DNA from: a virus
Virus record (IMG/VR): IMGVR_UViG_3300027905_000001
Span: 15,362-79,361 of that record
Strand: one strand, 5' to 3'
Length of the DNA: 64,000 nucleotides
Shown here: piece after piece, positions 35,494 to 40,416 of the stretch
Layout of the letters: each line of letters opens with the position of its first letter
How positions within the stretch are numbered: position 1 is the stretch's first letter
Position numbers and translations under genes: made by a program
Notes under the pieces: model-generated
What the model saw: the letters and a program-made list of their open reading frames with translations, nothing else
Told to the model about the DNA's origin: nothing
The model's database searches: none

Positions 35494-36333
35494 TCACTCA
35501 TTGGCTTTCACAAACCGTTCGCGCATATCGTCGATAAGTTTCAGATCGTTTTCGGTTAGTTGGGCATCATCAGGGACCTTCTCTGTCAACGCCTCCATAA
35601 CGCTCTCATTCCACCTAATCTGATAGCCGCTATGCCCATTCTTCACATAAGGGAATTCTTCGCCATAAGGTTTTCCAGCTTCCGTAATACGCCAATCCTT
35701 ATTGCCTTTGGCATCTACTTGTTGTTCCAGTAATCCTTTAGCGAGTAATGCCTTATTCGCATTGACCGCACTAATTCCAAGACGTTTACCAACTTCGGTA
35801 GGATTTAAGTATCCGGTTTCGTGTTCGGCAGCAGGGAGACATTTCGCAATATCCTGTAAATTTAGGCCGCTGTTTGTTTCTACTGCGCGAATACATGCGG
35901 CCTGGGCTATGCCGATACTTATACCTAGCTTTTCTTTGAGATATTCCGCTGTGTCAAATGCGTCTTTGATTGCTGGCCGGACGCGGGAAGATGTTCTCTT
36001 TTGCTTTGGCGCGGTTAACGTCTTCTCCATTTCCTCAAACTTGGTCACGTAAGTTGCTGTGAAGAGTACGCCCTTTTCGCCTGTCATTTTGTTGGCTACC
36101 ATGTCGCAGCCTTTGCGGGTTAGGAGGTAGCAGGGGCGGCTTTCGCCTTTGGCATCAATGTAAGTACTCGGGATGAAGAAATCTAACGAACGGAATTCTC
36201 CGTTGGTTAAGTGGGTTTCATACGTAGCGATCTTAGCGAGTAGGTCAGAATGCCTAACGTCTGTCATTTCGGCGGCATCCCGGCTGTCAATTACATAAAC
36301 CCCGTCTTGGTTGATAACTTGCAATTTGTTCAT
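35494..36333 (-). CDS. Phage antirepressor (Rha N-terminal domain plus Ant/KilAC-like C-terminus)
   Basis: VINQDGVYVIDSRDAAEMTDVRHSDLLAKI. Confidence 0.65.
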   Translation of the reverse strand: MNKLQVINQDGVYVIDSRDAAEMTDVRHSDLLAKIATYETHLTNGEFRSLDFFIPSTYIDAKGESRPCYLLTRKGCDMVANKMTGEKGVLFTATYVTKFEEMEKTLTAPKQKRTSSRVRPAIKDAFDTAEYLKEKLGISIGIAQAACIRAVETNSGLNLQDIAKCLPAAEHETGYLNPTEVGKRLGISAVNANKALLAKGLLEQQVDAKGNKDWRITEAGKPYGEEFPYVKNGHSGYQIRWNESVMEALTEKVPDDAQLTENDLKLIDDMRERFVKANE

Positions 36334-36336
36334 ATT

Positions 36337-37002
36337 TCACCCCCTCGCTAACCGCTTTTTGGCGATATTTGACTTTTTAATCAATAAGTCTCTAATTTGG
36401 TAGTAATCGAATCCAAGTTCATAAAGTACAGCAATCTTATGTGTTTGATTCTCAACAAGTTCCATTTCGCCAGAAGTCATAAAGTCGAGTGCGACAGCCT
36501 TTTTATCCGCTCCACGTTCCTTACGGATACTTGCGGCAATTTTACCAAGAGCCGCTTTGTAGGATAGGTCGATAAAAAGTTTGTAATCCCACTCGCTACG
36601 ATTTGGATTTTCCTTAATCCTATCTAGCAAAGGTTTGCGAGTTGGTTTGAGTGTCATTTTACCGATTTGGCGTTTTTGAAGTTCGGTTCGCATTTCGTAG
36701 AATTGGCGAACGAGTTCGGTTTTGAAATCAATTACAGTTTCGGTATTTCTCAGGAAGGTAACTAAGAGTGTTGCTTGCTCCTCGTTCAGGTGATAAACCT
36801 TTCTAATTTGCGTACCACCTTTTGTTTCAAAGGGTGTCATTTCAAATGATACCCTTCCGAACTTTTCGAGCCGTTGCTGATGCTTTTCAATCAATAGATA
36901 AACTGAACGGTTTGCAATTTTTGCATACTCAGCGATTACATCACTCGTTGTAAATGGTATAGCCTTGATAGAGTTCGGTTCAAGAAAAACTAAGTCACCC
37001 AT
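36337..37002 (-). CDS. Phage regulatory protein Rha family
   Basis: NSIKAIPFTTSDVIAEYAKIANRSVYLLIEKH. Confidence 0.65.
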   Translation of the reverse strand: MGDLVFLEPNSIKAIPFTTSDVIAEYAKIANRSVYLLIEKHQQRLEKFGRVSFEMTPFETKGGTQIRKVYHLNEEQATLLVTFLRNTETVIDFKTELVRQFYEMRTELQKRQIGKMTLKPTRKPLLDRIKENPNRSEWDYKLFIDLSYKAALGKIAASIRKERGADKKAVALDFMTSGEMELVENQTHKIAVLYELGFDYYQIRDLLIKKSNIAKKRLARG

Positions 37003-37192
37003 TAAAATCCTCTCCTTGATTTAGTTGGCCGCTTTTTGATTCGACTCTTGAGCTTGAACCAAATTGATAATCGCGATAACTCCTTCACGAATCTTCTTAG
37101 AGCTATAAATTGGAGGAAGATACGTGACTTTATTTTTTGATGCCAAATAATTTCTCTCCTTTTCGTTTTATGTGTATAATACTTTCGCAAAT

Positions 37193-37208
37193 AGTAAATA
37201 ATATTAAC
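37193..37208. promoter_or_regulatory. Operator-like motif GTAAnTnATATTAACG, copy 1
   Basis: Copies at 37193, 37293, 37583 around the cro/cI pair. Confidence 0.5.
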
Positions 37209-37292
37209 GTCGAGATCAAATAAAAAGGAATTGCTTAGAAAAAGCGTGGACAAGTATTGCGTAAATGTAAATACAATTTATAATGTAACGTG

Positions 37293-37308
37293 TAAGTAAT
37301 ATTAACGC
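37293..37308. promoter_or_regulatory. Operator-like motif, copy 2 (overlaps cro-like stop codon)
   Basis: gtaagtaatattaacg. Confidence 0.5.
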
Positions 37309-37544
37309 AATGCGTCCAACACCGCCTCGGATTGGGCTTCCATTTCTACGTCTGGGAACAACTCGTTAACTGGAGTATCAAACAAGAAAGATAGCTTCAG
37401 CATTAACTTGCCACTAGGCGTTGCGTTGCCGTTCTCAATATACCTTATCATGGTCCCAGTAACTCCGACGGCAGCGCCTACTTTATCCTGTGTGCCATAG
37501 GCTCTTCTTAGTTGTTTGAATCTTTCTCGTTTATGTCTTGTCAT
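37302..37544 (-). CDS. Cro-like HTH XRE-family regulator (first gene of leftward early operon)
   Basis: AYGTQDKVGAAVGVTGTMIRYIENG; divergent from CI-like gene. Confidence 0.6.
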   Translation of the reverse strand: MTRHKRERFKQLRRAYGTQDKVGAAVGVTGTMIRYIENGNATPSGKLMLKLSFLFDTPVNELFPDVEMEAQSEAVLDALR

Positions 37545-37582
37545 TCTGTATCACCACCTTTGTCCTTGATAGAATATTATCA

Positions 37583-37598
37583 CGTAAATCATATTAAC
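37583..37598. promoter_or_regulatory. Operator-like motif, copy 3, in divergent promoter region
   Basis: gtaaatcatattaacg; -10-like TATACT at 37612-37617. Confidence 0.5.
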
Positions 37599-37645
37599 GC
37601 AATATGTAAATTATACTTTCTTTTATGGAAATGAGGAAAATATTT

Positions 37646-37984
37646 ATGATTATCGGTATGGGCAGTAGAATTAGAGTTCTTCGACTTGAACGAGGGTTAA
37701 CACAGGACCAAATGGCATATAAACTGGACATGAATCGTGCGAATTTCTCACATTACGAAAGAGACACATCTTCCCCACCGTGCGAAGTTCTGGTCAAAAT
37801 AGCTGATATTTTAAATACAACTACAGATTTCCTTCTTGGACGCACAGATACTAATCCACCCGATGCTGCAACAATCAAACAACTACAAGGAATTAATGAA
37901 TTACCGCAAGACAAGAGAAGATTTGTAATAAATATAATAAATTCGATTATTTCAGAAATAATCGAAGAGGCTAAGGAGGAATAG
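37646..37984 (+). CDS. CI-like HTH XRE-family repressor, coupled to integrase
   Basis: RBS GAGGAAAA; VLRLERGLTQDQMAYKLDMNRANFSHYERD; stop 3 nt before integrase ATG. Confidence 0.6.
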   Translation: MIIGMGSRIRVLRLERGLTQDQMAYKLDMNRANFSHYERDTSSPPCEVLVKIADILNTTTDFLLGRTDTNPPDAATIKQLQGINELPQDKRRFVINIINSIISEIIEEAKEE

Positions 37985-37986
37985 GT

Positions 37987-39465
37987 ATGCATGGAATACT
38001 ATACCTGCGCAAAAGCAGAGAAGATGAGCAATATGAAAAAAATACTGGCGAAGATGTTCTGCAAACCCATCGCGAACGTTTGGTTATGCTCTGTAAGTCG
38101 CGGGAAATTACCTTCGACGAACGCGCAGAGGTACGAAGCGGTGATACGATCGCAGGTCGGCCTAAATTTCAGAATATACTAGATACGGATCTCCCCTCTG
38201 GTCAATACTCTTGTATCATTGTTACTGAAATTTCTCGACTTGGCAGAGGGGACATGGAGGATGCAGGAAGAATATACAAAACCATAATCCACAACGAGAT
38301 TAAGATTGTCACGCCGAATAAAATATATGATCCGTTAAACCCTTCCGATCTTCGCCAGCTAAGGTTCGAGCTATTCATGTCTCGGGAGGAATACGAAAGC
38401 ATTAAGGAAAGACTATGGAATAATAGAAATTACCGGGCAACACAAGGTTATGCCGGCAATTATATTGTCACGCTCGGTTTTCGCCAGTCCAGGGGGATAG
38501 TCGAGATAATCCCCGAAGAGGAAAAATTAGTGCTTGAAATATTTACGATGCGCTCTGAAAATTACTCCTATCAAGAAATAGCGGATTACTTTAATTCCAG
38601 AAATTTAAAGACAAAACGCGGAACAAAGTATCATGAATCTACAATATATAAGATATTAAAAAATCCCAGGTATATAGGAGTGGCTAAGTGGCAAGGCAAG
38701 GAATATATAGCTAAGCACCCTGCGATAGTCTCATTGGACCTATGGAACTCTGCGCAGGATATCAACGCTGAAAGACATCACAAGAGACGAGGGTCAAAAA
38801 ACGATAACCCTTATCTAGTAGAGCTATACTGTCGAGAATGCGGGCAAAGGATGTACGGGGAACGCTCTACCCCGCAAAGGGTAATAGATGGTGTTCGAAA
38901 GCTATATAAAAGCAGAGACATCTATATTTGTAGGGGCAGAAAAAGCATCCCTAAATGTTGGCACCACATAGGAGCCAGCGTTGTTCACTCGACCATCCTT
39001 GATGAGCTTGGGAAGATAATATCAGATCCGCAGATTTTTCTTGAGTTAGTCAACGAGAGAGAATCAAGACTTGGCGTCGATACTAATGGTTTATCAGATC
39101 AAGTGGATGAATTAAATAAGCAAGTCAAGGATAAAAACATCCTTTTGGTAAAAATAGAGAACGATTATGAAAAAGGCGACCTATCCGCTTTGCTATATAC
39201 TAAACACGTTGAAAAAATATCCAAAGAAATAGCATCTATTGAAGGTAGGATAAAAAAAATTAAGGCCGATTTATTAAAATCAGCCATTAAGATTAGTCCT
39301 CCTATGGAATTACAATCAATTTTGAAAACATTCCTAAATAACTGGAACGCCTATCCTAATAGTGACAAGAAGCTCATCATTAGATCATTTCTTCCCAGGG
39401 TTGAGGTGAACAAGCAGGGTGAATTCTTTATCGCTATTACTTTGCCTGATTCTATCGAAATTTAG
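37987..39465 (+). CDS. Large serine recombinase (phage integrase, serine type)
   Basis: N-terminal resolvase-type catalytic domain (YLRKSREDE), recombinase domain, Cys-rich zinc ribbon, C-terminal coiled coil; 492 aa. Confidence 0.8.
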   Translation: MHGILYLRKSREDEQYEKNTGEDVLQTHRERLVMLCKSREITFDERAEVRSGDTIAGRPKFQNILDTDLPSGQYSCIIVTEISRLGRGDMEDAGRIYKTIIHNEIKIVTPNKIYDPLNPSDLRQLRFELFMSREEYESIKERLWNNRNYRATQGYAGNYIVTLGFRQSRGIVEIIPEEEKLVLEIFTMRSENYSYQEIADYFNSRNLKTKRGTKYHESTIYKILKNPRYIGVAKWQGKEYIAKHPAIVSLDLWNSAQDINAERHHKRRGSKNDNPYLVELYCRECGQRMYGERSTPQRVIDGVRKLYKSRDIYICRGRKSIPKCWHHIGASVVHSTILDELGKIISDPQIFLELVNERESRLGVDTNGLSDQVDELNKQVKDKNILLVKIENDYEKGDLSALLYTKHVEKISKEIASIEGRIKKIKADLLKSAIKISPPMELQSILKTFLNNWNAYPNSDKKLIIRSFLPRVEVNKQGEFFIAITLPDSIEI

Positions 39466-39784: not shown

Positions 39785-40194
39785 GATAATATCAAGTATT
39801 TTTTCAGTCGGAATATTTTTTTCAATATCTATATCCTCATCTCCTGCCTGAATTTATGTTTTACCAGTCTCTATATACTAGAACGTGTGTTCTTAATTTT
39901 CAAGGGGTAATTTGTCGCAAAAGAAATAAATCGTTTCTCTTCCCCTTTCTCTCGCTACCCGTAGGAACAAAGTCCTACAATCAGTCCTAGATATAATTCA
40001 GAATATTTATTTAAGTTATTGACAGTATACGCTATAACGTTTGTCGAAATCGCGTGAAATAAAGGAGGCCAAATGTGAATATTTTGTGATTATAAATTAT
40101 ACTTAAGTCTACATATTATAATACCTGCTACATTTTTGTGTTAGCAGGATTAATCCTATCCTCTGTGGAAGTATTTTCCTATGGTGGTGAGGCG

Positions 40195-40416
40195 ATGGAT
40201 TTAGAAGATAAGTTAAAGGATAACAAAATACAATACATACTAGACAAGCGTGATATGTCGCAAAAAGACCTTGCCGCAACGCTCGGGTGGTGGCCGAGTG
40301 ACATAAGCGACATCGTTAACGGTAAGGTTAAGCGCCTTACGCTCATTCGCGCTTCGATGATATCCGTTGCTCTCGGGTATTCGGTTGAGTATATTTGGCC
40401 TACTTTATTCAAGTAG
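40195..40416 (+). CDS. HTH XRE-like regulator
   Basis: ATG after GGTGGTGAGG; MSQKDLAATLGWWPSDISDIVNGK. Confidence 0.5.
   Translation: MDLEDKLKDNKIQYILDKRDMSQKDLAATLGWWPSDISDIVNGKVKRLTLIRASMISVALGYSVEYIWPTLFK

Follow-up and report, generated by a model that had tools for sequence, protein, structure and literature searches.

The three copies of the GTAANTNATATTAACG motif at the immunity region of this viral genome appear to be the strong members of an array of six sites, arranged in three pairs whose members lie 22-32 bp apart. These sites would serve as operators of an ImmR-like CI repressor, and probably also of a small Cro protein, at two promoters that would face each other ~280 bp apart with cro nested between them: the lytic promoter, P(cro), and a promoter-like sequence beyond the cro stop codon, which we designate P_conv and which may be the sole or a major source of cI-int transcription. 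We regard this overall model, a six-site operator array for CI (and probably also for Cro) combined with face-to-face promoters, as reasonably likely.

Exactly three matches to GTAANTNATATTAACG were found in the window (the whole 64-kb stretch of DNA that was analysed), all of them on the plus strand (copies 1 to 3 in Table 1), and none was found in 100 dinucleotide-preserving shuffles of the window. The original prediction had counted the copies correctly, with each of its coordinates (37193, 37293 and 37583) one base off, and the three that it listed turn out to be half of a conserved array of six, organised as three pairs. The copies are 15-bp near-palindromes of the form GTAAAT-N3-ATTWAC, which reads GTAAAT-N3-ATTAAC in the window; the consensus in related loci is the perfect palindrome GTAAAT-N3-ATTTAC, and a pooled matrix derived from 39 strong sites is palindromic. 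When sites were scored against GTAAAT-N3-ATTTAC over 12 positions with a cut-off of at least 10/12, the whole window contained nine, compared with ~5.2 expected per 64 kb under a Markov model, and five of the nine fall inside one 430-bp stretch at the immunity region, where a sixth, weak site was also recognised (scores in Table 1). A dyad-symmetric cluster with five copies at or above 10/12 in 430 bp of an immunity region is the pattern looked for in operators.

Table 1. Genes, putative promoters and predicted operators at the immunity region (window coordinates; site scores are matches to GTAAAT-N3-ATTTAC over 12 positions).
Feature	Position	Strand	Description
Phage_pRha-domain genes (two)	36337..37002 and 35494..36333	-	
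41-aa ORF	37021..37146	-	first gene after Oe/Of; conserved
Of	37172..37186		weak sixth site, minus-strand GAAAGTATTATACAC, 8/12
Oe (copy 1)	37194..37209		strong predicted operator, GTAAATAATATTAAC, 11/12; before the small ORF and the Rha genes
Hairpin	37233..37245	-	degenerate, 4-bp stem, then T-rich tract; from folding
P_conv	37257..37284	+	promoter-like, cI strand; -35 TTGCGT (37257-62), 16-nt spacer, -10 TATAAT (37279-84)
Od	37267..37281		GTAAATACAATTTAT, 11/12; in the P_conv spacer and at the edge of its -10
Oc (copy 2)	37292..37307		strong predicted operator, 10/12; overlaps the cro stop codon; ~+1 to +16 of P_conv
cro	37302..37544	-	cro-like HTH_3 gene, 80 aa
P(cro)	37574..37602	-	-35 TTGCGT (37602..37597), 17-nt spacer, TG-extended -10 TGATAATAT (37582..37574)
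Ob (copy 3)	37584..37599		strong predicted operator, 11/12; fills the P(cro) spacer
Oa	37606..37620		weaker site, GTAAATTATACTTTC, 10/12; 22 bp from Ob, on the cI side
cI	37646..37984	+	cI-like repressor, ImmR/Xre-type HTH, 112 aa from the likely start
Integrase	37987..39465	+	large serine recombinase gene, 3 nt after cI

For comparison, Cro homologs (58-81% identity) were traced to their contigs, and ~13 non-redundant loci were obtained, belonging to Desulfosporosinus, to Paenibacillus or to metagenomes. Searching genomes and metagenomes with the Cro alignment contributed two loci each; most of the comparison loci came from exact-protein look-ups and from an IMG/VR scan with the CI-HTH alignment, which yielded 39 more. 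A DNA search of a phage collection with positions 36300-38000 returned only short, irrelevant matches inside the Rha gene. The six-site array occupies fixed positions in the ~13 related loci, although their Cro proteins show just 58-77% identity, in a common order that reads, in the direction of cro, Oa, Ob, cro, Oc, Od, hairpin, Oe and Of, followed by a Shine-Dalgarno sequence, a conserved small ORF and a variable gene of the Rha, ANT, Bro-N or ORF6N type. Oa is a weak site in the relatives (GAAAAT-N3-ATTTAC), and the Oa-Ob spacing is 22-23 bp in all 13 loci. Strong sites resembling Oc are found at +2/+3 after the cro stop codon in nearly all relatives; Od (ATAAAT-N3-ATTTAC followed by GCAA) lies 25-34 bp past Oc and is a full operator sequence in the Paenibacillus loci L006 and L022; and Oe is again a strong site, located 63-74 bp after Od, ~+99 past the cro stop codon. 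Of reads GAAAAT-ATT-ATWCAC and lies 31 bp from Oe in most relatives, compared with 22 bp in the window and in L003; in the window this shortening corresponds to a 9-bp deletion within 37172-37209 relative to most relatives. Since 22 and 31 bp represent two and three helical turns, the two sites would lie on roughly the same face of the helix at either spacing, which fits cooperative binding. A conserved CGAAARTATTATWCAC block was also considered, by eye, as a LexA/Cheo box, a reading that was rejected since the block is not palindromic in that register and fits the weak Of site instead.

The hairpin between Od and Oe has a stem of 5-8 bp followed by TTTATTT in the relatives, again in the direction of cro. 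Four consensus pairs are recognised, three of them with compensatory changes, and the stem is broken in the window; the structure resembles a weak terminator separating cro from the genes that follow. The first of these genes, the 41-aa ORF, carries a conserved GKVIYLPPIYDPKKVREG / GKVIYLPPIYDPKKVREGILEILNLV motif in eight loci, is always the first gene past the distal operator pair and has no match in Pfam or PHROG.

The Cro protein of the window has a 100% identical counterpart in Candidatus Desulfosporosinus infrequens. The cI reading frame opens at 37625, and alignment with relatives places the likely start at 37646. The closest solved relative of the CI HTH is the Xre-family regulator of ICEBs1 (PDB 7t8i, E 5.7e-11), so that this part of the protein is homologous to the ImmR repressor of the ImmR/ImmA module. 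The adjacent ImmA (M78) protease of that module was not found: the recombinase gene directly follows cI, and tblastn searches of the window with the M78 proteins of three relatives gave no match with E <0.7. Several relatives do have an M78 (ImmA-like) protease gene next to cI, on the side of the recombinase gene and ahead of it, and the protease is encoded in L008, L015 and L016. Across loci, CI has a highly conserved N-terminal HTH (GLTQDQIAEKLNMNRANFSHYERD...TDYLLGR) and the C-terminal parts are modular, with at least five types, including a fusion to an S24 peptidase in Paenibacillus; the window CI has neither an S24 peptidase domain nor an adjacent ImmA/M78 protease, and relatives carry one or the other. 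In two loci, L010 and L011, a 109-aa lipoprotein-like gene (2082-2411) stands in the place of cI with lysis genes beyond it; both loci keep cro, all of the operators and the convergent promoter, and L011 has an IS605/TnpB insertion downstream. The window also contains a second small HTH_3 gene (40138-40416, plus strand), ~670 bp to the right of the recombinase gene.

The identity of the DNA-binding protein was approached through co-variation between recognition helix and motif, with GTAAAT-type sites counted within 600 nt upstream of cI. Loci in which the CI helix reads MNRANFS[HN]YE or MNPANFSSYE (two have the latter) contain one to three GTAAAT-type sites and no GGTATT-N3-AATACC site, with L029 as the exception; loci with the helix MGRSNFGHIE contain no GTAAAT-type site and three to five GGTATT-N3-AATACC sites; and loci with other CI helices contain neither. 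Helix type and motif type therefore segregate cleanly over 38 loci, as looked for in operators, apart from L029 (L002), which encodes a CI homolog with the same helix and has no sites; this locus is uninformative because the homolog stands in a different context. The Cro proteins change in parallel with the CI helix types, so that CI and Cro are not separable as the binding protein on these grounds, and both are expected to use the sites. From the dyad symmetry, the conserved positions, the helix co-variation and the location of copy 3 in the spacer of the cro promoter, we infer binding by these proteins and consider it very likely that the motif copies are CI/Cro operators, in line with the original prediction of repressor sites.

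P(cro) has the form TTGCGT-17-TGnTAATAT with Ob in its spacer, a configuration that is conserved in all 14 aligned loci. Judged from sequence, Ob overlaps the core of the lytic promoter, which is the classical position for an operator predicted to repress it. The location of copy 3 between the Cro-like gene and the CI-like reading frame (37302..37544 on the minus strand and 37625..37984 on the plus strand) was confirmed, as was the overlap of copy 2 with the cro stop codon (37302-37304). The description of this interval as a divergent promoter region fits poorly: it contains only two sites, 22 bp apart, in contrast to the lambda-type P_RM/P_R arrangement, and the aligned loci share no conserved cI-strand promoter between cI and cro. 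Since the cro promoter is clear and a conserved cI promoter is absent from the intergenic region, the divergent-promoter picture is probably wrong. The other two copies do lie downstream of cro and ahead of the Rha genes, as had been proposed, with the qualification that copy 1 sits 48 bp upstream of the 41-aa ORF and the two Phage_pRha genes come after that ORF. Copy 2, which had been assigned to the leader of the Rha gene, is better placed at about +1 to +16 of a conserved promoter-like sequence on the opposite strand.

This sequence, P_conv, has a predicted start near 37291, about the first base of Oc, and is oriented through antisense cro toward cI and int. Its -35 hexamer, TTGCGT, matches TTGACA at just three of six positions. 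A cI-strand TTGCGT-16/17-TATAAT sequence located 18-36 nt past the cro stop codon is present at 9/12 or better in 10 of 13 loci, and the remaining three have TACAAT or TATAGT as the -10 hexamer, keeping T1, A2 and T6. The two hexamers do not vary, in contrast to the right half of Od, which degenerates, and selection therefore appears to act on the promoter and not on the operator alone. At least three immunity types, differing in their operators, have P_conv in this position. In the group characterised by the MGRSNFGHIE helix (group 2), in which the sequences are not alignable with those considered above, the cro homolog is closely followed by a perfect TTGACA-17-TATAAT, with the -35 embedded in the operator GGTATTGACAATACC and another operator at ~+5 to +20; in L044 the corresponding sequence is TTGCGT-[CGTTATTTTAAATAACG]-TATAAT. 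Relatives that have no cro (L025/26, L030-36 and L043) carry the equivalent of P_conv 134-171 nt upstream of cI. In these cro-less loci (~1300-1500 in L025/L026, ~1330-1500 in L030-L036 and L043) only ~80-110 nt separate the lytic promoter from the opposing cI-strand promoter, a face-to-face arrangement like that of P2 and 186.

At the sequence level, a predicted lysogenic promoter is thus located downstream of the lytic promoter and aimed at it. Given the conservation of its hexamers we infer promoter activity, and we consider P_conv likely to be functional; that it also feeds cI, which would require read-through across antisense cro, is close to evenly balanced. Of 23 loci, 15 are free of terminator-like structures in the interval from P_conv to cI. 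With the strong site Oc at +1, P_conv would be shut when repressor is abundant, and may therefore serve in establishment or be self-limited. Should Oc equal Ob in strength, P_conv would be silent in the lysogen; a separate maintenance promoter may then be needed, and there may be a weak one proximal to cI. A search of Rfam over 36900-37750 gave no match at E<=1. RNAalifold predicted no consensus pairing over the first ~110 nt of the transcript that P_conv would produce, and a structured small RNA was therefore discarded as an interpretation.

Three other readings of the locus were weighed against this model. The repeats might be bound by another protein, such as a Rha-domain protein or a host factor, or might be chance repeats in an AT-rich sequence. 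Rha-domain proteins are putative DNA binders and the immunity region is indeed AT-rich, but the shuffle control speaks against chance, the sites persist where the downstream gene is of the ANT, Bro-N or ORF6N type and not Rha, and the motif follows the helix type of CI and Cro, which together make this reading very improbable. A more serious contender is a plain divergent switch like that of lambda or TP901-1, in which cI would be expressed from a weak intergenic promoter, the downstream copies would be merely auxiliary operators, like O_D of TP901-1 or phi13 (stabilising repression through looping and blocking early genes), and the TTGCGT...TATAAT sequence would be inactive. In its favour, cI and cro are divergent genes, TP901-1 and phi13 provide documented examples of switches with three operators, one of them distal (PMC8516035), a promoter-like TTGATA-18-CATATT (9/12) is present on the cI strand at 37566-37595, and -10-like hexamers are found inside Oa in several loci. 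However, no intergenic cI-strand promoter is conserved across the loci, whereas immunity groups with differing operators share the downstream -35 and -10 hexamers, which are also kept directly upstream of cI where cro is missing, and we consider a switch of this kind unlikely.

The remaining alternative accepts P_conv as real and proposes that it yields only an anti-cro RNA, similar to OOP or sar, that ends inside cro, short of cI. The window does have a weak terminator-like hairpin on the cI strand inside antisense cro (CCTGTGTGCCATAGG followed by CTCTTCTTAG, 37487-37501), which could stop P_conv transcripts before they reach cI, and comparable hairpins are present in L012, L018 and L020. Against this, the T-tract in the window is poor (CTCTTCTTAG), the 15 loci without such a hairpin include nearly all of group 2, and no conserved RNA structure was found in the putative transcript. 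Moreover, in the relatives that lack cro the promoter opposes nothing but the lytic promoter and is the sole recognisable promoter for cI. An exclusively antisense role consequently appears improbable, more so than the divergent switch and less so than binding by an unrelated protein.

In the six-site model that we prefer, repressor bound at the first pair (Oa and Ob) would shut lytic transcription, since Ob fills the spacer of the cro promoter. The second pair (Oc and Od) would bracket P_conv, which would fire back through cro toward cI and the recombinase gene and would be self-limited by the repressor because its start site coincides with Oc and its spacer is occupied by Od. At the third pair (Oe and Of), bound repressor would keep the small ORF and the Rha genes silent, whether through occlusion of a weak promoter or by acting as a roadblock to transcription reading through from P(cro); alternatively, it could tether loops to the other two pairs. 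A convincing sigma-A promoter could not be recognised at Oe/Of, where the candidates (TTATKN-17-TATWCA and TTTACA-18/20-TAATAT) have poor hexamers or spacing and are displaced by the 9-bp deletion in the window. It is plausible that this pair controls antirepressor expression, as had been suggested; the antirepressor function itself is a matter of annotation only, the Rha proteins being identified as regulators or anti-repressors by Pfam (Phage_pRha) and PHROG ('transcriptional regulator' or 'anti-repressor'). With the lytic and lysogenic promoters face to face and cro between them, transcriptional interference and antisense effects on cro would be possible.

The operators themselves are an ordinary kind of element, and the original finding adds little because operators are expected at a prophage immunity region. 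We tentatively propose, as a reading that is somewhat less likely than not, that a widespread family of Firmicutes prophages, characterised by an ImmR-like CI, a small Cro and a serine or tyrosine integrase, drives its repressor-integrase operon from a strong, operator-bearing promoter beyond cro, head-on to the lytic promoter, and not from the interval between cI and cro, and thereby operates a CII-independent lysis/lysogeny switch based on convergent transcription. If true, cro would be nested antisense in the cI leader and would be absent altogether in some members. The correspondence between recognition helix and motif, a weightier outcome, provides a defined operator code for uncharacterised ImmR-type repressors in Desulfosporosinus, Paenibacillus and related prophages. 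The prediction of face-to-face promoters enclosing cro in these phages is directly testable, since the Paenibacillus larvae phage phiIBB_Pl23, the closest isolated phage with this layout, shares it; the record of this phage annotates a promoter only in the cro direction. In phiIBB_Pl23 (L028/L032/L063, ~1084-1112 and 1418-1470) the convergent promoter bears a GTAAAT-type site and the cro-promoter region has CTCAAATTTAATTTGAG-type palindromes instead, which suggests that related but diverged operator variants occur within one phage.

The switches of TP901-1 and the staphylococcal phage phi13 employ operators designated O_R, O_L and O_D, and the present locus resembles them in having several palindromic predicted CI operators, of which one overlaps the lytic promoter and another is placed farther out, inside or past that first lytic gene, as well as a small second regulator transcribed divergently from cI (PMC8516035). 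It differs from them in that the CI HTH is of the Xre/ImmR type according to Pfam and PDB matches, which showed no sequence relationship to these switches, in that the second regulator is an HTH_3 Cro and not MOR, and in the presence of six sites in three phased pairs, with a conserved cI-strand promoter between the distal sites. Furthermore, P_R and P_L of TP901-1 are divergent, whereas the lytic and predicted lysogenic promoters here are convergent. The match of the CI HTH and the order of repressor and integrase on one strand are shared with ImmR/ImmA of ICEBs1 from Bacillus subtilis. Relatives of the window also carry an M78 (ImmA-like) gene, as ICEBs1 does, whereas the window has neither ImmA/M78 nor S24. 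To our knowledge, ICEBs1 has no cro, and we know of no convergent immR promoter in this element.

In phage lambda, the promoter P_RE lies downstream of cro and reads back toward cI, convergent with the lytic promoter; both P_RE and the pE promoter of coliphage 186 are weak and need the CII activator. Like P_RE and 186 pE/pL, P_conv is located past the cro-type gene and reads antisense to it, toward cI and int. Unlike P_RE and pE, it has near-consensus hexamers, which argue against the need for a CII-type activator, and has the repressor's own predicted operators in its spacer and at +1; the hosts here are Firmicutes, in contrast to those of the coliphages lambda and 186. Face-to-face promoters with a long transcript overlap also form the bistable prgQ/prgX switch of the Enterococcus plasmid pCF10, which shares this promoter layout with the arrangement predicted here and differs from it in being a plasmid conjugation system under peptide pheromone control with unrelated proteins. 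The convergence of pR and pE in 186 has been discussed with respect to transcriptional interference (PMC7708051), and the general concept of a convergent-promoter switch is treated in PMC5001618. In the literature on Gram-positive phages we found no description of a convergent cI promoter, which constitutes weak negative evidence. Work on face-to-face promoters has until now centred mainly on P2/186-type coliphages and pCF10, and the architecture predicted here would represent a modestly novel version of these known convergent-promoter switches.
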